Below are positions 7,261-45,203 of a stretch of DNA of 64,000 nt, in pieces. The notes under the pieces are model-generated. The model ran no database searches and was not told the DNA's origin. It saw nothing but the letters and a program-made list of their open reading frames with translations. Location of the stretch: assembly GCA_015065285.1 (NCBI GenBank), contig SVQP01000002.1:40209-104208 (forward strand), given 5' to 3'. How positions within the stretch are numbered: the first letter of the stretch is position 1; each line of letters opens with the position of its first letter. The translations under genes were made by a program, and so were the position numbers. The DNA is from Oscillospiraceae bacterium (GTDB lineage Bacteria; Bacillota; Clostridia; Oscillospirales; CAG-272).

Positions 7261-8352
7261 ATGAAGCTTTCAAACAATCTCAAAAGAGCGTGCGCACTGC
7301 TGTGCGTTTGCTTGATCTTAGGCACCTTGGCTGTGGGCTGTGGACAGCGGCAGGTGTACCGCGTGGCGGTGTTCGCCTATAAATTTGACGACAGCTATAT
7401 TGCCACGGTGCGTACCGCACTGGAGAAGCAGTTCAAGGAGTACCGTGACCGCATGGAGGTCACCTTTTATAACGGGGAAAACAACCAGCAAACGCAAAGC
7501 ACGCAGATCGATACCGCCATTACGCGCGGCGCGGATTTACTGATCATCAATGCCGTGGATTTCCAAAGCGCAGGACAGGCGCTGGCGCAAAAGGCGTATG
7601 CAAAGGGTCTGCCGGTCATCTTTTTCAACCGCGAGGTATCGGATGCGGCAATCAAGGTGGCGGACAACGTGTGCTTTGTGGGCACCGATCCGGATGCCCC
7701 CGGCTATATGCAGGGAGAGCTTGTGGCAGAGATGCTTGCGGATAACGAGGCGTTTTCAAAATACGATCTGAACGGTGACGGCAAGATCCAGTATGCCATG
7801 TTCCGTGCCGAGGTGGGCAATGCCGAGGCGGACGGACGCACCAAGTACGCGGTATCCGAGGCGAATCGGCTGCTCTCTGAAAATGATGAGCTGACCGTAG
7901 CCGATAAAAAGGGAGACGTGCTTGTGCGCGTAGGTGCGGATCAGCTTGCCAACTGGGATAGCGCCACTGCCAATAACATGATGGGCTCCTTGTTCCGCGT
8001 GCAGGACGGTGTGCCCAATATCGAGCTTGTGCTGTGCAACAATGACGATATGGCGCTGGGCGTGATCTCGGCACTTGAGGCAAAGGGATATAACACCAAG
8101 GGCAGCCGCGATTCGGACAAGCCTTATATTCCGGTGTTTGGCGTGGATGCGCTGTCAACCGCCATGGATGCGCTGCAAAACGGCAAGATGCAAGGAACGG
8201 TCAAGCAGGACGGTGAGGCAATGGCAGAGGCGATCGTCAAAATTGCGGCAAACGTCATGGAGAACAAGGGCTTATTAGAGGGCACGTCATACGAGTTTGA
8301 CAAGGACGTACGCAAGCTGCGTATTCCGTACACGCCCGTCACCTCCAAGTAA
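7261..8352 (+). CDS. mglB: galactose/methyl-galactoside-type ABC transporter substrate-binding lipoprotein
   Basis: ATG 7261 follows ggagg. Lipobox LAVGC. MglB-like motifs YKFDDSYIATVRTALE and NNDDMALGVISAL. Confidence 0.8.
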   Translation: MKLSNNLKRACALLCVCLILGTLAVGCGQRQVYRVAVFAYKFDDSYIATVRTALEKQFKEYRDRMEVTFYNGENNQQTQSTQIDTAITRGADLLIINAVDFQSAGQALAQKAYAKGLPVIFFNREVSDAAIKVADNVCFVGTDPDAPGYMQGELVAEMLADNEAFSKYDLNGDGKIQYAMFRAEVGNAEADGRTKYAVSEANRLLSENDELTVADKKGDVLVRVGADQLANWDSATANNMMGSLFRVQDGVPNIELVLCNNDDMALGVISALEAKGYNTKGSRDSDKPYIPVFGVDALSTAMDALQNGKMQGTVKQDGEAMAEAIVKIAANVMENKGLLEGTSYEFDKDVRKLRIPYTPVTSK

Positions 8353-14039: not shown

Positions 14040-14248
14040 ATCTTTTTCCGAAAAGCCCGGATCAAATGCTATGCCAAAGAGAAGCACCCCGCGATTTTTC
14101 GCGACAGTCGAACGGCACTTAGTCCGCTCGCCCAACCAAATCCGCCGCACCTGCGGATGGCTTCGGCACCGCGCCCCTTTCGCTCACCAACGGCTGTGCT
14201 GCCTGTTCCGATGAGGTACTGTTTGCGCCGTGCGCCTCGACTCTTATG
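14040..14248 (-). promoter_or_regulatory. lysine riboswitch (L-box) aptamer
   Basis: The minus strand carries the conserved L-box blocks in order: GAGGCGC, AGTA, GGAA, GAAAGGGGCGCGGTGCCGAAG, TTGG, ACTGTCG, closing ...GGGGTGCTTCTCTT. The genes downstream are for lysine biosynthesis. Confidence 0.85.
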
Positions 14249-14253
14249 TCAAG

Positions 14254-14282
14254 ATTATAAATGATTCTGTCTTGCTTGTCAA
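14254..14282 (-). promoter_or_regulatory. sigma-A type promoter of L-box/dapA-dapB-ddh
   Basis: The minus strand reads TTGACA-17 nt-TATAAT immediately upstream of the riboswitch. Confidence 0.7.
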
Positions 14283-16899: not shown

Positions 16900-16929
16900 T
16901 TGACAAGCGGCGTGGGCGAATGGTATAAT
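16900..16929 (+). promoter_or_regulatory. candidate sigma-A promoter of split transketolase operon
   Basis: TTGACA-18 nt-TATAAT with TG upstream of the -10, 38 nt before ATG 16967. Confidence 0.55.
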
Positions 16930-16966: not shown

Positions 16967-17797
16967 ATGAACACACAAAAGCTGCAAATGCTCAAGGAAA
17001 AGGCAAAAGCGATCCGCCTTGGCGTACTGGAAGGAACGCATGCCGCAAAATCGGGTCACCCGGGTGGATCTATGTCCATTGCCGATCTGCTCGCATACCT
17101 GTATTTTGACCACATGAACGTTGATCCCGCGAACCCCAAGGATCCCGACCGTGACAGACTGGTGCTGTCCAAGGGTCACTGCGCGCCCGCTTTGTATGCG
17201 GCACTGGCAGAGAAGGGGTTCTTTGATAAGGCGCTGCTTTCTACGCTGCGCCAGCACGATTCGATTCTGCAGGGACATCCCGATATGAAGCACATTCCCG
17301 GCGTGGATATGTCCACGGGCTCGTTAGGACTCGGCTTCTCCGCTGCCTGCGGCATGGCACTGGCTGCCAAGCTGGACGGCAAGGATTACCGCACCTATGC
17401 CATCGTGGGTGACGGTGAGAGCGAAGAGGGTCAGATCTGGGAGGCTTGCATGTTTGCAGCCCACTACGCGCTGGATAACCTCTGCCTGATCATTGACTCT
17501 AACGGCTTGCAGATCGACGGTCCGGTTGCCGAGGTCATCGGCCCCGCGCCCTTTGAATCCAAGCTGGAGGCATTCGGATTTTTCGTACAGACCATCGACG
17601 GTCACGATTTTGACCAGATTGAGGAGGCTTTGGAAAAAGCCAAGGCGGTCAAGGGCGCACCCAGTGCCATCGTGATGAACACGACCAAGGGCAAGGGCGT
17701 TTCCTTTATGGAAAATCAGGTCAAGTGGCACGGCTCTGCTCCCAATGACGAGCAGTATGAGACTGCCGTGGCAGAATTGACTGCAAAGGAGGACTGA
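16967..17797 (+). CDS. transketolase, N-terminal subunit
   Basis: 276 aa with GHPGGSMS and VGDGESEEGQIWEA TPP-binding motifs. The split form is typical of Clostridia. Confidence 0.9.
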   Translation: MNTQKLQMLKEKAKAIRLGVLEGTHAAKSGHPGGSMSIADLLAYLYFDHMNVDPANPKDPDRDRLVLSKGHCAPALYAALAEKGFFDKALLSTLRQHDSILQGHPDMKHIPGVDMSTGSLGLGFSAACGMALAAKLDGKDYRTYAIVGDGESEEGQIWEACMFAAHYALDNLCLIIDSNGLQIDGPVAEVIGPAPFESKLEAFGFFVQTIDGHDFDQIEEALEKAKAVKGAPSAIVMNTTKGKGVSFMENQVKWHGSAPNDEQYETAVAELTAKED

Positions 17798-17801
17798 GCA
17801 G

Positions 17802-18752
17802 ATGTACAAGATTGGTGATAAGGTAGCCACCAGAGATGCGTACGGTAAGGCGCTGGTGGAATTTGCAGAGCAATATGATTTTGTGGTGCTGGACGCTGAC
17901 CTTGCAGAGGCGACCAAAACCGTAACCTTCAAAAAGGCTTACCCCGAAAGATTCTTTGATTGCGGCATTGCCGAGGGCAATATGATCTGCGTAGCTGCAG
18001 GACTTGCAGCGGCAGGCAAGACTGCATTTGCATCTTCCTTTGCCATGTTTGCGGCAGGCAGAGCATTCGAGCAGGTCAGAAACGCAGTGGGATACCCCCA
18101 CCTGAACGTCAAGATCGGTGCTACGCACGCGGGTCTGGCGGTTGGCGAGGACGGTGCCACTCACCAGTGCCTGGAGGATCTGGCGCTCATGCGCACCATT
18201 CCCGGCATGACGGTCATCAACCCTGCTGACGCAGTGGAGGCAAGACTGGCAGTCAAGTGCGCACTTGAAACCAACGGACCGTTCTACATCCGTTTCAGCA
18301 GAAACGCACTGCCCGTGATCAACGATGAAGAGTCCTATACCTTTGAGCTTGGCAAGGGTGTGACCTTGCGCAACGGCAAGGACGTAACCTTGGTAGCAAC
18401 CGGCTATATGGTATCCATGGCGCTGGAGGCAGCAGAGCTGCTGGCAGGCGAGGGGATTGATGCAAGAGTGATCAATATCCACACGCTCAAGCCGCTGGAT
18501 GCAGAGTTGATTTGCAAGGCAGCAGCCGAGACCGGTGCAATCGTGACCGCTGAGGAGCATAACGTCATAGGCGGACTTGGCGCAGCAGTTGCACAGGCTG
18601 TGTGCGAAGGCTGCCCCGTGCCCGTGCTCAGTGTGGGCACCGAGGATGCATTTGGCAGATCGGGCAAGGTACCCCCTCTGCTTGAAATGTACGGCTTGAC
18701 CCCTGCAAACATTGCAGAAAAGGCAAAGAAAGCGATTGCGCTGAAGAAGTGA
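17802..18752 (+). CDS. transketolase, C-terminal subunit
   Basis: 316 aa pyrimidine-binding/C-terminal domain (GIAEGNM, EDGATHQ). Confidence 0.9.
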   Translation: MYKIGDKVATRDAYGKALVEFAEQYDFVVLDADLAEATKTVTFKKAYPERFFDCGIAEGNMICVAAGLAAAGKTAFASSFAMFAAGRAFEQVRNAVGYPHLNVKIGATHAGLAVGEDGATHQCLEDLALMRTIPGMTVINPADAVEARLAVKCALETNGPFYIRFSRNALPVINDEESYTFELGKGVTLRNGKDVTLVATGYMVSMALEAAELLAGEGIDARVINIHTLKPLDAELICKAAAETGAIVTAEEHNVIGGLGAAVAQAVCEGCPVPVLSVGTEDAFGRSGKVPPLLEMYGLTPANIAEKAKKAIALKK

Positions 18753-18763
18753 AAATAAACGAT

Positions 18764-18797
18764 AAAACCGCAGGCAGATGCCTGCGGTTTTCTTTTG
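18764..18797 (+). terminator. intrinsic terminator after tkt
   Basis: accgcaggc-agat-gcctgcggt followed by tttcttttg. Confidence 0.85.
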
Positions 18798-18889
18798 GGC
18801 TACGAAACGTCTGCTTAGCCGGAGTAATATTCTTTACTTGCCCTAACCGATTACGCAGCGGGCGATCAATGATCGCCCCTACAGGCGCG

Positions 18890-18997
18890 TCATAAACCGT
18901 TTCCTAGATCCCGCGCTGCGCGCGCCCTTCGGGTTCGACTGCGCGCGGACACCACAACGCGGTGTCCGCGCTCCGCTCAGGATGACACAAAAGGGGG
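18890..18997 (+). repeat. module X, copy 1 (about 107 bp)
   Basis: It matches 22874-22980 with 3 substitutions and 1 indel (aligned by eye). Confidence 0.85.
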
Positions 18998-19085
18998 AGG
19001 CGAGTCCTCGCGTCTTCGCTCAGAAGCACACCACTATGTGTCATCCTGAGCGGAGAGAGAATGCCGCTGCGCGGCATTCGAACGC

Positions 19086-19199
19086 AGTCGAACTTTTGCG
19101 GGTCGAACATTTCGCGGCAGAGCCGCGAAATTGAGCGAGCAAAAGCGCAAGTGCGGTAGCGCGCAGCGGGATCTGCGAGGGGTTTACAAGACGTCTGCT
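19086..19199 (+). repeat. module Y, copy 1 (114 bp)
   Basis: It matches 22495-22608 with 5 substitutions and no indel (aligned by eye). Confidence 0.85.
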
Positions 19200-19437
19200 C
19201 GACCAAAGTAATATTTTTTACTTGCCCCAACCGCTTGCGTATCGGACCGCCGAGGACGTCGGTCCCTACAAGGGAATCATAAACCGTTTCCTGGATCCTC
19301 AAAGCGCAATCCTTGCGCTTTGACTTTCAAAAATCAGCAATTTTTTGCAGATTTTTGAAAGTTCGACTCGAAAACATCCGCACAGGGATGTTTTCTCGCT
19401 CAGGATGACACAAGGGGGGAAGCTCTGCCATCAGACC

Positions 19438-19466
19438 TTGACCTTTCAAGTGAATTGTGATATAAT
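19438..19466 (+). promoter_or_regulatory. sigma-A type promoter in front of RHS fragment 1
   Basis: TTGACC (19438-43), 17-nt spacer, TATAAT (19461-66), with TG at the extended -10 position. Confidence 0.6.
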
Positions 19467-19493
19467 AACATTGACCCGTTAAGGGGCTTAATC

Positions 19494-19523
19494 ATGCAAC
19501 CCAAACCGGCATCATCGGCATGA
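19494..19523 (+). CDS. 9-codon upstream ORF (MQPKPASSA) overlapping the RHS-fragment start
   Basis: aagggg SD 7-8 nt upstream. The stop TGA 19521-23 overlaps ATG 19520 (ATGA). Confidence 0.3.
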   Translation: MQPKPASSA

Positions 19524-19887
19524 TGTATACCGGCACTAACGGCACGACAGCTACCTACTACTTCCGCCGCAATCTGCTTGGTGACGTCATTGGTATTTAT
19601 GATACCAATGGTGCCAAGGTTGGCGGCTATGCTTATGATGCTTGGGGTAATTGCACGATTACGCTCAATACCAACGGTATTGCAACCAAGAATCCCATCA
19701 GATATCGCGGTTACTATTACGACCAAGATACCGGCTTGTACTATCTCAATGCGCGTTACTATAGCCCCGAATGGAGAAGATTCATCTCGCCTGATGATAC
19801 GGCTTATCTCGATCCCGACAGCTTCAATGGGCTGAATCTGTATTGCTATTGTAATAATGATCCCGTCAACTATGCCGATCCAAGTGG
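19508..19887 (+). repeat. 380-bp RHS core-tail repeat, copy 1
   Basis: Colinear with 20952-21331 at a constant offset of 1444 nt. The first 250 bp or so are near-identical; the last 120 bp or so are more diverged. Confidence 0.9.
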
Positions 19888-20473
19888 GCATATGCCAGAA
19901 TGGGCACAGAGGGTTGTTTGTGGTTTGGCAATATCAGGACTTGTAGTTGCTACTGTCTTGACTTGCGGCGTGGCTGGAGCTGGAGCAGCGATTGTTGGAG
20001 CAGCCATGTTAGCTGGTGGATTGATATCTGGAGGAATCACCGCTATAGACCAGTTGCGTGACACTGGTACGATTGATTTGACTTCGGTTGCTATTTCCAT
20101 ACTTTCCGGAACCGCATATGGATTGGTAATAGGCTTGACTGGAGGCGCTGGCACCTGGGCTATTGCAGGGAAATTGGCTGTTGCTGGAGGCACATCATTA
20201 CTTAATAGCTGGAATGAATGGGATGAGAATTCAAGTTTTGGAGGAATGATGGTCTCGTTAGGGTTTTCTTTAGCTGCGTCTGGAATTGCTCATGGCGCCG
20301 GATACTTGGCAGGTAAATTCGGAGCGCAAATATTGCCCAGAATTCTACCAAGAAATCCGAAGCACATAATAACCATGGGGGATATTGGATCTGCATTATG
20401 GAGTATTCCTGCTGTAAAGGTGGGAAGTATTAGGTTTATTAGTGGGATATTTGGATCTATTATTAGTGACTAA
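19520..20473 (+). CDS. orphan RHS core tail + C-terminal glycine-rich hydrophobic toxin domain (N-terminally truncated)
   Basis: YD-type repeats (YAYDAWGN) and RHS core end RYYSPEWRRFISPDD...LNLYCYCNNDPVNYADPSG. A variable CT of about 194 aa rich in GxxxG/AxxxG follows. Confidence 0.75.
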   Translation: MMYTGTNGTTATYYFRRNLLGDVIGIYDTNGAKVGGYAYDAWGNCTITLNTNGIATKNPIRYRGYYYDQDTGLYYLNARYYSPEWRRFISPDDTAYLDPDSFNGLNLYCYCNNDPVNYADPSGHMPEWAQRVVCGLAISGLVVATVLTCGVAGAGAAIVGAAMLAGGLISGGITAIDQLRDTGTIDLTSVAISILSGTAYGLVIGLTGGAGTWAIAGKLAVAGGTSLLNSWNEWDENSSFGGMMVSLGFSLAASGIAHGAGYLAGKFGAQILPRILPRNPKHIITMGDIGSALWSIPAVKVGSIRFISGIFGSIISD

Positions 20474-20489
20474 GAGGAGGTAAGCCAAT

Positions 20490-20672
20490 TTGGAGTTTCT
20501 TAAATATTGTTTGTATTGTCTTGGTATTGTAATAAGTGGCGCTTTTGGAAATAATCCAGAGGGTATGTCGCTAAAAACAATAATTGTTGGCAGTGTTACG
20601 ATGTTCGTTTTGCTGGGATTGGCATTAGGCATCCTATGGTTAATTGCAATAATAGTGAATAAAATTAGGTGA
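20490..20672 (+). CDS. putative immunity protein 1 (60 aa, two TM helices)
   Basis: TTG start 6 nt after gaggagg, 17 nt after the toxin stop. Two hydrophobic helices. AT-rich. Confidence 0.6.
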   Translation: MEFLKYCLYCLGIVISGAFGNNPEGMSLKTIIVGSVTMFVLLGLALGILWLIAIIVNKIR

Positions 20673-20738
20673 AATATGTGAAAATCATAGGCGCCAAGTG
20701 CCTAGGACACAGGGGGCGGTTAGCGTGAAAGCAAGCTG

Positions 20739-21935
20739 TTGAACTACAACGCATACGGTCAGAGAATAGGTGTTCGGTATACGTTCAGGCTCAGCGCACC
20801 GTCCTCTGCAATTGCCATGGGCACGCTGATGGGATATACCAAAGCATTCTGTTACGACCAATCCGGCAGACTGATCTGTGAGCGCAAGATCGGCAATTAT
20901 TACGGAGAAGGCACTGCGAGCGAGCAAACTGTATTTCTGTATGACGAGAGCGGTATCGTCGGCATGATGTATACCGGCACTAACGGTGAAACAGCTACCT
21001 ACTACTTCCGCCGCAATCTGCTTGGTGACGTCATTGGTATTTATAATACCAATGGTGCCAAGGTTGGTGGCTATGCTTATGATGCTTGGGGTAATTGCAC
21101 GATTACGCTCAATACCAATGGTATTGCAACCAAGAATCCCATCAGATACAGAGGTTATTACTACGACCAAGATACCGGCTTGTACTATCTCAATGCGCGG
21201 TACTACTCCCCCACTTGGCGTAGATTCATCAGCCCCGATGATACGAGCTATCTTGACCCGGAAATCGAAAGCGGACTGAATCTGTATTGCTATTGTAATG
21301 ATGATCCCGTCAACTATGCTGATCCGAGTGGATATATTGCAATTTCAACAATAATAATTGGTTGTTTGGCGGCTTTTGCTGTTGGTTCAGCAATAAGTGC
21401 AGTTTCACAAGGATTTCAATATGGATGGGATGAAATAAGTGTAGGACAGGTTTTGATTGATGGTGCATTTGCCGCAGCATCTGTTGCTTTAGCCGCAACA
21501 GGGATGCCTTTTATTGCTTCTGTTGCTGTAGGCGCGGCAATGGGATTGGGGCAATATGCTATAAGCACTAAGTTTCATAATGAACCCATGACACTTCAAG
21601 GGGTCATTATTTCGACTGTTTTAGGTGGAATCGGTGGTGCTGTCAGTGGAGCAGGAGCTAAAAACCTTAGTACTATTGCGTCTATTTATGATGATATGAC
21701 AGGAAGAGCGGCACAAGGGGTTAAAGCATTGATCACCGCAGCGCAAAGATATGGCTTTGGTAGTAAGCAATTTGCACTTGTAAACAACCTATATGGCAAA
21801 GCTATACAGTCAGCTGTGAACCAAGGAATAAAAAAGGCTTTTGTAGGCGCTACAATTAAGATTACCGCTACTACAATTGCCAATCCGTTTGTCGGTATGG
21901 GGATTAATAGCATAGTTGAATTCCTTATAAATTAA
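20739..21935 (+). CDS. orphan RHS core tail + second C-terminal hydrophobic toxin domain (fragment; may be silent)
   Basis: TTG-initiated ORF with no good SD. YD repeats (FCYDQSGRL, FLYDESG) and core end ...NDDPVNYADPSG. A different CT of about 200 aa follows. Confidence 0.65.
   Translation: MNYNAYGQRIGVRYTFRLSAPSSAIAMGTLMGYTKAFCYDQSGRLICERKIGNYYGEGTASEQTVFLYDESGIVGMMYTGTNGETATYYFRRNLLGDVIGIYNTNGAKVGGYAYDAWGNCTITLNTNGIATKNPIRYRGYYYDQDTGLYYLNARYYSPTWRRFISPDDTSYLDPEIESGLNLYCYCNDDPVNYADPSGYIAISTIIIGCLAAFAVGSAISAVSQGFQYGWDEISVGQVLIDGAFAAASVALAATGMPFIASVAVGAAMGLGQYAISTKFHNEPMTLQGVIISTVLGGIGGAVSGAGAKNLSTIASIYDDMTGRAAQGVKALITAAQRYGFGSKQFALVNNLYGKAIQSAVNQGIKKAFVGATIKITATTIANPFVGMGINSIVEFLIN
20952..21331 (+). 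repeat. 380-bp RHS core-tail repeat, copy 2
   Basis: See 19508-19887. Confidence 0.9.
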
Positions 21936-21951
21936 TCTTAGGAGCGTTGAT

Positions 21952-22329
21952 ATGACTAGATATCTTTTATTGCTGATTGTTACGGTAACTCTTGTGGTCA
22001 CGTGGGTTTTTGCAACTCAAAGTCAAGGGGGCTTGAGATTCGCTGAAAATGAAAAATTGGTTGTGCGATCCAATTCAATTTTGAGGAAACTTTTGTTAAA
22101 AAAGGATAATCAAGATTTTCCATTGAGAATATACAAAGTCATTCCATGGGTTATTAATATGGTTTTGTTTTTCAGTGTATTATTAGCTTATACGGTATAT
22201 GCAATTTTGTATCATAATCCAACGGGACTAATGATAAAAAGCTTTTTAGAAAGTGCTAGTGTGCAGATTTTCAGTTTGGCATGGTGTTTATTGAATTTCC
22301 TTTATATAGGAATCATTAATGCTCTGTAG
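21952..22329 (+). CDS. putative immunity protein 2 (125 aa, polytopic membrane)
   Basis: ATG follows aggag, 17 nt after the toxin stop. 3-4 hydrophobic helices. AT-rich. Confidence 0.6.
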   Translation: MTRYLLLLIVTVTLVVTWVFATQSQGGLRFAENEKLVVRSNSILRKLLLKKDNQDFPLRIYKVIPWVINMVLFFSVLLAYTVYAILYHNPTGLMIKSFLESASVQIFSLAWCLLNFLYIGIINAL

Positions 22330-22413
22330 CCCAGTTTTTTAAATTCTTCACCGTAACAGAAAACGGTTCTCTGTTCCATAAATAATCAAAATCCAAGTAT
22401 GATAACTCTGTTG

Positions 22414-22449
22414 AGAGTGCCGCTTCGGCGGCACTCTTTTTTGATTTTT
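22414..22449 (+). terminator. intrinsic terminator closing the RHS island
   Basis: agagtgccgc-ttcg-gcggcactct followed by ttttttgattttt. Confidence 0.85.
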
Positions 22450-22494
22450 CGTACTCTCTTTTGTGTCATCCTGAGCGAGGTCGCAGAGCGACCG

Positions 22495-22608
22495 AGTCGA
22501 ACTTTTGCGGGTCGAATATTTCGCGGCAGAGCCGCGAAATTGAGCGAGCAAAAGCGCAAGTGCGATAGCGCGCAGCGGGATCTGCGATGGGTTTGCAAGA
22601 TGTCTGCT
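22495..22608 (+). repeat. module Y, copy 2
   Basis: Direct repeat of 19086-19199. Confidence 0.85.
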
Positions 22609-22625
22609 TAGCCGGAGTAACTAAG

Positions 22626-22861
22626 CCTCTCCCGCCGGGTAGAGGGGGACCGCAGTGAGCGTAAGCGAACAGCGGTGGAGTGGGTCACCGTATGGACGCT
22701 CTTTCATCAATTAATCGATCCCACATGATAGGAAAAGAGAACCCTTCGGCAAATGCCGCAGCATTTGCCACCTCCCTTAAAAGGGAGGCAACCCCTCCAC
22801 CGCAATCGCGAAGCGGCACGCTGCGCCGCTTCACTGCGGTCCCCCTCCCCTAAAGGGGAGG
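22626..22861. mobile_element. MITE-like element with imperfect terminal inverted repeats of about 55-65 bp, no ORF
   Basis: The left end cctctcccgccgggtagagggggaccgcagtgagcg...gcggtggag is the imperfect reverse complement of the right end ctccaccgc...cactgcggtccccctcccctaaaggggagg. Confidence 0.5.
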
Positions 22862-22873
22862 CTCTTTCGCGTG

Positions 22874-22980
22874 TCATAAACCGTTTACTAGATCCCGCGC
22901 TGCGCGCGCCCTACGGGTTCGACTGCGCGCGAACACCACAACGCGGTGTCCGCGCTCCGCTCAGGATGACACAAAGGGGG
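22874..22980 (+). repeat. module X, copy 2
   Basis: Direct repeat of 18890-18997. Confidence 0.85.
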
Positions 22981-23245
22981 GGCACCGCCAAAGTAACTTT
23001 GTGTAGGGGAGCATATTATGCTCCCGCACGCGATGATAACGGATCAGCGTTCGGGTAAAAAAATCATAAACCGTTTGCAAGACGGGTCGTCAAGGTGCCG
23101 ACCCCTACCGGGGTTGTTGCCGCAGGCAGGATGACACGAAAGGGGTGTTCTGCTCAGGATGACACAAAGGGGATGCGTGTGTATAGATTTGTTAAATGGT
23201 TTTCATGTAGCTTTCAAGCATGACCGATTTTTCGCACCGGGGTTA

Positions 23246-44809: not shown

Positions 44810-45203
44810 AAAAAGGCTGAGTCAAGCAATGGGTGATGTCCTTATCGGAGAAATTTTATAAGGGGTATGGGCATAGCCCTGCGCATTTGTTAAACAAATG
44901 CGAAACTGGCAATAAAAGCAGAAGAGAGAGTAACGCGGTTACAAATTTCCGCGAAGCTCTCTCTTTTTCTGCTTTTTTAGTGATATTCTTTGCTTTCGCA
45001 AAGAGTGATATTATTGCTACCGCAATAGTGATATTGAAGCCTTGCGGCTTCAGTGGTATTTTATTCGCCTTCCAAAACTTGCGTAGCAAATATCACTCGG
45101 CATAAGCCGAATATCACTGCGTAGCAATATCACTCGCCGAGAGGCGAATAAAACTGGCGTGATACTCCGCTTGGAGTATTACGCCAATTTGACTCAGCCT
45201 TTT
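44810..45203. repeat. terminator stem split by a 363-bp hairpin-rich insert
   Basis: aaaaaggctgagtcaa (44810-25) and ttgactcagcctttt (45189-203) are perfect complements separated by 363 bp of nested repeats. Confidence 0.7.
44979..45155. repeat. imperfect palindrome built from 4 forward AGTGATATT and 4 reverse AATATCACT 9-mers alternating with mini-hairpins
   Basis: Forward copies at 44979, 45004, 45027 and 45052 (the last degenerate). Reverse copies at 45089, 45110, 45126 and 45147 (the last degenerate). Confidence 0.8.

Follow-up and report, generated by a model that had tools for sequence, protein, structure and literature searches.

The 64-kb stretch of Oscillospiraceae contig SVQP01000002.1 analysed here, referred to as the window, carries a 3-kb unit built from two orphan fragments of rhs genes and headed by a near-consensus promoter at positions 19438–19466. 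From left to right, the unit is composed of the promoter, a truncated rhs core with its C-terminal (CT) domain (rhs′-CT1, orphan 1), a gene for a 60-residue protein, a second fragment with a different C-terminal domain (rhs′-CT2, orphan 2), a gene for a 125-residue protein and an intrinsic terminator; all of these lie on the forward strand. We propose, with modest confidence and from sequence comparisons, that the promoter is a functional one of the housekeeping type that heads a self-contained, strain-variable orphan Rhs unit, the selected output of which is most likely the two candidate immunity proteins.

The promoter is of the σ70/SigA type, TTGACC-17 nt-TGaTATAAT, with a score of 11/12 in the consensus scan and an extended −10 TG. 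As read from the sequence, the −35 hexamer TTGACC occupies positions 19438–19443, the TG dinucleotide 19458–19459 and the −10 hexamer TATAAT 19461–19466, with TGa forming the end of the 17-nt spacer, so that the site at 19438–19466 has the arrangement of SigA-type promoters (hexamers 16–18 nt apart, with or without the extended −10 TG). On sequence geometry, transcription is predicted to start at the purines 7–8 nt past the −10 hexamer (19473–19474, forward strand), and a transcript beginning near 19473 would be approximately 3 kb long. A second TTGACC hexamer is present in the leader at the predicted start (19472–19477), with no matching −10 element downstream. Promoter-like sites scoring at least 11/12 occur ten times on the two strands of the window, compared with 0.34 expected (0.05 expected with the TG) under a first-order Markov model of the window, an approximately 30-fold enrichment obtained by consensus matching rather than with a calibrated model. 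The strong sites are placed as promoters would be expected to be: one at 16900 lies ahead of the transketolase (tkt) genes and another ahead of an ABC transporter, the start of which was read. A 12/12 promoter at 14282–14254 (reverse strand), located directly before a lysine riboswitch (14074–14248, reverse strand; RF00168, 72.8 bits) upstream of dapA/dapB, served as a positive control for the scan. The promoter at 19438–19466 is more than a chance match, and it is probably real and functional, judged by its sequence and placement.

The promoter is embedded in 84 nt of unique DNA (19424–19507, forward strand), neither RHS-derived nor repetitive, which is bounded by the end of an intergenic repeat (at about 19423) and the start of RHS homology (19507/8), and which also contains a Shine–Dalgarno (SD)-like site and the start of a short upstream open reading frame (uORF). 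An earlier sequence-only reading had described the promoter, the SD-like site, the ATG at 19494, the uORF and its stop/start overlap with the Rhs fragment, and a base-for-base reading places every one of them where that reading had put it. Its estimate of about 19508 for the start of RHS homology agrees with the cassette-to-cassette alignment, which begins at 19507, and its description of the promoter and most of the uORF as non-RHS DNA joined to the last 120 or so core residues is accurate, with 124 such residues kept. No homologue of the 84 nt was detected elsewhere in the window or in the 110 fetched loci (blastn-short; only chance 12–16-mers), in plasmid and phage collections (blastn) or in a scan of viral contigs (0 matches). 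An exact/degenerate pattern scan of metagenome contigs likewise returned 0 matches, though the locus itself is present in JGI and ENA contigs by protein look-up. The contigs that carry the same locus (L001–L011) are 98.8–100% identical over the parts shared with window positions 18750–19600. Two possible origins of the junction were considered and set aside. Capture of the promoter from the gene located behind tkt in strains without the island was rejected, as the promoter of the ABC transporter operon found there (L116) differs; an origin of the junction as a deletion remnant of the 5′ end of a full-length rhs gene found no support, the upstream region of the full-length gene in L013, the only such region that was read, being unrelated.

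The SD-like site AAGGGG (19481–19486, forward strand) lies 7 nt before ATG 19494, with a predicted duplex energy of −6.5 kcal/mol. From this ATG, the uORF runs for nine codons (MQPKPASSA*, 19494–19523, forward strand), and its TGA stop codon (19521–19523) overlaps the ATG at 19520 of orphan 1. The overlap takes two forms, ATGA at 19520–19523 and TGATG at 19521–19525, and the ATG codons at 19520 and 19523 are both in the frame of orphan 1. The energy of −6.5 kcal/mol is marginal, compared with a median of −7.75 kcal/mol for 26 genes, and is reached at 13–15% of random positions. Both the uORF TGA and the ATGATG come from codons native to the core (GGC ATG ATG, encoding G-M-M), the same bases being found mid-fragment in cassette 2, and the junction DNA contributes to the uORF only ATG 19494 and its frame. 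The uORF is invariant in all contigs of the same lineage, copies that give no evolutionary depth. The leader folds no better than its shuffled versions (z = −0.04) and has no significant match to a known RNA element in Rfam. On these sequence properties, the uORF is not shown to be beyond chance, and its coupling to the Rhs fragment is possible but unsupported.

Orphan 1 is a 317-residue Rhs-tail/toxin open reading frame (ORF; 19520–20473, forward strand). It keeps 124 core residues up to the DPSGH motif (residues 121–125) and contains a complete Rhs_assc_core domain (TIGR03696, residues 39–124, E = 1.9e-23), the form of a 5′-truncated rhs core ending in the Rhs-associated core domain and the DPxG motif. 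Alignment with full-length RHS proteins by tblastn is limited to these last ~124 core residues. Between the two cassettes, 300 nt are 90% identical (homology D1, 19507–19806 and 20951–21250), and the core fragments at 19520–19894 and 20964–21338 have diverged with a dN/dS of 0.24 (dS 0.34, dN 0.08), a ratio that reports past purifying selection and says nothing on present translation of the fragment. Their divergence took place mostly under protein-level constraint, presumably while they were parts of full-length genes. CT1 is a 192-residue candidate toxin domain, hydrophobic by hydropathy, and neither CT1 nor its counterpart in orphan 2 has a match in Pfam, NCBIfam or the PDB. The start region of orphan 1 has an SD energy of −1.7 kcal/mol, equivalent to no SD, and the 317-residue product has no export signal. 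The ORF is followed by the candidate cognate immunity gene, which starts with TTG and encodes a 60-residue membrane protein (20490–20672, forward strand) behind the SD AAGAGGAGGT at 20472–20481, with an SD energy of −13.7 kcal/mol. In the distant genomes L012 and L013, a homologous ORF of 61 residues stands behind the homologous toxin. In protein P0020 (396 residues), the toxin ORF continues into a homologue of the 60-residue immunity protein (…MLEFIKYCLICL…), by read-through or fusion, which confirms the linkage of the toxin with this gene.

Orphan 2 (20724–21935, forward strand; open from 20724) consists of ~198 core residues and a different hydrophobic C-terminal domain of 200 residues (CT2), unlike CT1. 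It is without a promoter or SD of its own: the SD energy is −4.1 kcal/mol, and the equivalent core region holds no promoter scoring at least 10/12. Behind it lies a gene for a 125-residue membrane protein (21952–22329, forward strand), the candidate immunity gene for orphan 2, preceded by the SD AGGAG at 21940–21944 (−7.6 kcal/mol). A small membrane-protein ORF with an SD is thus found behind each CT domain, and both are candidate immunity genes. The unit is closed by a strong intrinsic terminator at 22413–22438, or 22413–22445 as annotated (forward strand), which has an 11-bp stem with 7 G–C pairs and a T-run; from the promoter to this point, the sequence contains only weak hairpins, no more than its shuffled versions. 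No full-length rhs gene is present in the window or on the contigs of up to 86 kb that carry the locus. Homologue listings reach lengths of ~1.75 times the query (555 residues for the 317-residue query, 354 for a 202-residue one, whose own 398-residue parent, P0046, is absent from its listing) and are uninformative on full-length Rhs proteins. The window holds no delivery gene, no recombinase ORF adjoins the island, and no plasmid, phage or viral match was obtained.

The recurrence of promoters at orphan truncation points was surveyed in 20 loci from species genomes and 80 from metagenomes. With four full-length references, tblastn mapped 184 RHS C-termini, 94 of which were truncated fragments with a visible 5′ junction; junctions were called from tblastn boundaries and in-frame stops, in zones of ~300 nt. 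A site scoring at least 10/12 was present in the sense orientation in 25/94 junction zones and in the antisense orientation in one; at a threshold of at least 11/12, the counts were 13 and 1. This antisense control covers base composition and not every strand-specific bias. In random 290-nt windows (from the initial 15 loci and the window), the background frequency of such a site was 8%. Many of the junctions are kin by descent; after clustering, with some non-independence remaining, a promoter with its −10 end no more than 100 nt from the start of RHS homology was found in 13 of 63 junction families. In most promoter-bearing orphans, RHS-derived sequence begins 5–60 nt past the −10 hexamer, and the fragment has neither an SD nor a start codon. 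An apparent shared start at a conserved methionine (MVYT, MLYT) in many database orphans was not accepted as a sign of a true start, since the DNA shows GTG/ATG choices by gene callers inside longer fragments.

Two styles of promoter-headed orphan were distinguished. In the first, a T-run terminator hairpin abuts the promoter TTGACT-17-TGgTAAAAT before each cassette (L019, L026, L027 and L126). This unit, hairpin-CTTTTTC-TTGACTGCGGGCGnGGAnGATGGTAAAAT, is found in front of Rhs orphans from several genera (L019, reverse strand; L026:5035–5102; L027:1326–1393; L126:3838–3905), and a related unit, TTGACA...TGgTATACT, occurs in L013. The promoter spacer is conserved across genomes and the hairpins upstream vary; promoter and spacer are kept before different cassettes, which suggests a promoter that belongs to the cassette and moves together with the fragment behind it. 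In the second style, to which the window was assigned, a perfect or near-perfect TTGACA-17-TATAAT promoter heads an island (L014, beside hprK; L030; L049; L051), with no full-length rhs gene upstream of these islands in the available 3.5–10 kb. In L030, an in-frame ATG with an SD-like site is fused to the fragment. The orphan at L042:926–1040 is cut within a few codons of the truncation point in the window (…LLGMIYTADG versus GIIGMMYTGTNG), and its promoter, which is unrelated and scores 12/12, ends 16 nt before the RHS homology and 22 nt before an in-frame ATG; there may be a preferred truncation or selection point ~125–132 residues before DPxG. Approximately 2.6 kb downstream of a solitary promoter-bearing orphan cassette in L126, a 93-residue ORF (7587–7868) shows weak similarity to Phage_integrase, either by coincidence or as a possible sign of mobility. 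By sequence and placement, the window promoter is one of a class of promoters that head orphan Rhs cassettes and islands in gut Clostridia, a class that recurs and has so far been under-appreciated. A limited full-text literature search found no description of promoters fused to orphan truncation points, a result that is no proof of novelty.

The island lies downstream of two transketolase subunit genes (16967–18752), which end in a strong palindromic terminator (18764–18791). Between this terminator and the junction are ~630 nt of intergenic repeats. The last copy, of 143 nt (19281–19423, no strand assigned), ends in GCTCAGGATGACACAAGGGG and forms the left edge of the island, and L002 and L007 have these 143 nt, at 95% identity, on the right-hand side of the island. 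The right edge in the window is formed by an inverted copy of the GCTCAGGATGACACAA repeat motif (22455–22476, reverse strand). The repeat units at 18800–19423 and 22455–23240 are 35–143 nt long, end in GCTCAGGATGACACAA(A/G)GGGG and occur in both orientations; the island flanks have direct repeats of 113–126 nt in common, and all seven exact CAGGATGACAC motifs of the window are located there (18978–19411 and 22463–23165). A 132-residue ORF at 18904–19302 (reverse strand), called as a gene in metagenome annotations, consists nearly entirely of repeat units (peptide motifs CHPER and LRMT) and is probably spurious.

Different strains join different genome segments at this repeat cluster, which looks like a recombination hot spot of the repetitive extragenic palindrome (REP) or miniature inverted-repeat transposable element (MITE) type. 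An identical Tkt-C protein is encoded in L114, L117 and L118, which carry the island, and in L115 and L116, which do not; in the latter two, tkt is followed by a GH106 gene (L115) or an ABC transporter operon (L116). To the right of the island, too, strains differ: L002 and L006 have SpoIVA there, the window and L003 a short-chain dehydrogenase. Across the island, the GC content drops from ~56% to 30–48%. The island is accessory and strain-variable. Farther along the window, at 45085–45156 (reverse strand), lies a Gut-1 RNA (RF01706, 57.3 bits compared with a gathering score of 50), a member of a small RNA family known from gut metagenomes.

With a terminator behind the tkt operon and no full-length rhs gene upstream from which transcription could continue into it, the island needs a promoter of its own. 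In the arrangement we favour, transcription from 19438–19466 would proceed across the leader, rhs′-CT1, the first immunity gene, rhs′-CT2 and the second immunity gene to the terminator. The two membrane proteins would protect the cell against Rhs toxins delivered by relatives, and the truncated core-plus-toxin segments would ride on the transcript as remnants or recombination arms, poorly translated if at all. Immunity proteins are favoured as the output because strong SDs precede the immunity genes (−13.7 and −7.6 kcal/mol) and are absent from the Rhs fragments (−1.7 and −4.1 kcal/mol), because the unit lacks a convincing internal terminator up to 22413–22445, and because most other promoter-bearing orphans have neither an SD nor a start for the Rhs fragment. 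The sequence-only reading had offered two explanations, transcription of the immunity genes and expression of a stand-alone toxin; the SDs, the uninterrupted unit and the startless relatives favour the former, and the latter gained no comparative support. That the small ORFs confer immunity, and that immunity is the selected function, we infer.

Several observations weigh against this arrangement. An immunity role for the small ORFs is an assumption that draws on position and size, on membrane character and on conserved linkage. The 317-residue ORF remains intact, complete with its self-cleavage domain, and the uORF is ideally arranged for reinitiation. Such a promoter is missing from approximately 80% of orphan junction families and hence is no general requirement; it is commoner in head-of-array than in internal orphans (6/17 versus 9/60), but not significantly (p = 0.08). 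At this locus, promoter conservation is not measurable, because the contigs that contain the junction are nearly identical.

The intact ORF and its leader also agree with production of a stand-alone toxin, which we regard as a possible but rather unlikely output. The uORF would be translated and ribosomes would reinitiate at ATG 19520 or 19523, giving a low level of the 317-residue product, which could self-cleave at DPSGH and act inside the cell as the toxin of a toxin–antitoxin (TA)-like addiction or growth-control module. In bacterial operons, stop and start codons that overlap as AUGA or UGAUG can couple translation, and both overlaps are present here. The uORF stop has the same position relative to two in-frame AUGs as in classical coupling; there, however, the upstream ORF is a real gene that usually holds the SD of the downstream gene, whereas here it has nine codons, a marginal SD in front and no internal SD. 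If the uORF is translated, it would place a terminating ribosome on the two in-frame AUGs, and a trickle of the 317-residue protein is plausible. The complete Rhs_assc_core domain, the in-frame ATG and SD-like site of the L030 fragment, and the internal-promoter precedent of Salmonella (PMC7043789) are consistent with such a product, as is the very strong predicted translation of the candidate immunity gene, which would be expected if some toxin is made. Against it stand the marginal SD of the uORF, with an energy that 13–15% of random positions reach, the origin of the stop and ATGATG from core codons common to cassette 2, the ordinary leader structure and the absence of an export signal. In addition, no SD and uORF ending on the fragment start were found at the 24 other promoter-bearing orphan junctions, most of which have no start of any kind.

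The 84 nt could instead be the 5′ end of an unrelated or ancestral gene, joined to the fragment by deletion or rearrangement, with a promoter that may fire and yet be unselected for the island. The junction does abut a repeat cluster at which the content after tkt varies among the island, an ABC transporter and GH106, and the uORF and the fragment are in different frames, as an accidental fusion would predict. We nevertheless consider such a fortuitous relic improbable: the searches described above, in the 110 loci, the rest of the window and the plasmid, phage and viral collections, uncovered no source of the 84 nt, the ABC transporter that follows tkt in L116 has a different promoter, and junctions of this kind, cut at various points, turn up in unrelated genomes with a 25:1 bias for the sense strand, which points to selection or to inheritance within the cassette. 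Least probable is that ATG 19494 and its SD were once in frame and were silenced by a 1-nt deletion or a 2-nt insertion: the uORF and Rhs frames are one base apart and L030 demonstrates that an in-frame SD and ATG fused to a fragment exist, but no in-frame variant was seen among the copies here, which are all identical, and the in-frame upstream peptide PVKGLNHATQT is not RHS-like.

Orphan toxin–immunity cassettes are usually viewed as silent spares that need a full-length gene for their transcription and use. The strand-biased recurrence of promoters in many gut Clostridia, together with islands that have no full-length rhs gene nearby, suggests that many orphans are defence units with an expression of their own. 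The acquired-immunity idea would then extend from type VI secretion systems (T6SS) of Bacteroidales to Rhs systems in gut anaerobes of the Gram-positive type, operon rather than pseudogene would be the proper annotation for such fragments, and they would offer simple constructs to see if orphan toxins are made at all. More speculatively, and with little confidence, a sizeable subclass of Rhs orphans in gut Clostridia might consist of autonomous promoter/core/toxin/immunity/terminator cassettes, in which the core serves as a homology arm for exchange and the built-in promoter secures immunity wherever the cassette lands; at the present locus, the uORF would add an addictive trickle of self-cleaving toxin.

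The orphan rhs-CT/rhsI and cdiA-CT/cdiI modules of Proteobacteria (PMC3150448, PMC3967940) resemble the two cassettes in their 5′-truncated core, which keeps the motif before a variable toxin, in the small cognate immunity gene with its own SD and in the occurrence of tandem pairs. Their toxin fragments have no initiation signals, a pattern into which orphan 2 fits fully. Orphan CT modules are generally without translation initiation signals and are co-transcribed from upstream; for an orphan module of Escherichia coli, the region is transcribed from the upstream full-length gene and the orphan immunity protein is made, with the orphan CT undetected (PMC3150448). Proteobacterial orphans sit behind a full-length gene and use its promoter, whereas here no recombinable full-length rhs gene precedes the cassettes in the window or on the contigs of up to 86 kb, a near-consensus promoter lies in non-RHS DNA at the truncation point, and the host is a Gram-positive-type gut Clostridium (metagenome-assembled genomes of Oscillospiraceae/Ruminococcaceae type). 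Absence of an own promoter and start, as expected of an orphan cassette, holds for orphan 2 and not for orphan 1 with its 11/12 promoter. The sequence-only reading had taken orphans to be usually promoterless and startless: starts are indeed generally lacking, but the promoter part holds only in part, given the core promoters of Salmonella and the 13 of 63 families with a promoter found here.

In Salmonella, promoters within the core drive rhs-CT/immunity pairs of both orphan and main type; one of these promoters, P2, is located 89 nt upstream of PxxxxDPxGL, and the CT and immunity proteins act as type II TA-like modules (PMC7043789). Similarly, the toxin and immunity genes of the unit described here would be transcribed without reliance on a full-length gene, and a poor start may allow a low level of translation. 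It differs in that the Salmonella promoter is part of the conserved rhs coding sequence, in main and orphan copies alike, whereas the present promoter lies outside RHS DNA, 41 nt before the start of RHS homology and ~430 nt before DPSGH, and is absent from cassette 2, an arrangement that is not of the Salmonella type. For a Gram-positive orphan, wapA-ct2 of Streptococcus suis, transcription has been reported, with no promoter mapped (PMC12704120).

Orphan immunity islands exist in Bacteroidales (bioRxiv 10.1101/471110). The acquired interbacterial defence (AID) and recombinase-associated (rAID) islands of gut Bacteroidales (bioRxiv 10.1101/471110; PMC12247911) counter T6SS effectors and are often carried on mobile elements or located beside an XerD-like recombinase, with integron-like intergenic repeats; unlike them, the present island retains intact toxin remnants of the Rhs type and has no recombinase nearby. 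In other respects it has the form of an AID-like island, with no linked delivery gene in the window, candidate immunity genes and presence in some strains (L114, L117 and L118) but not in others (L115 and L116), and its likely benefit would be the same, immunity to toxins that the cell itself does not deliver, in a gut community.

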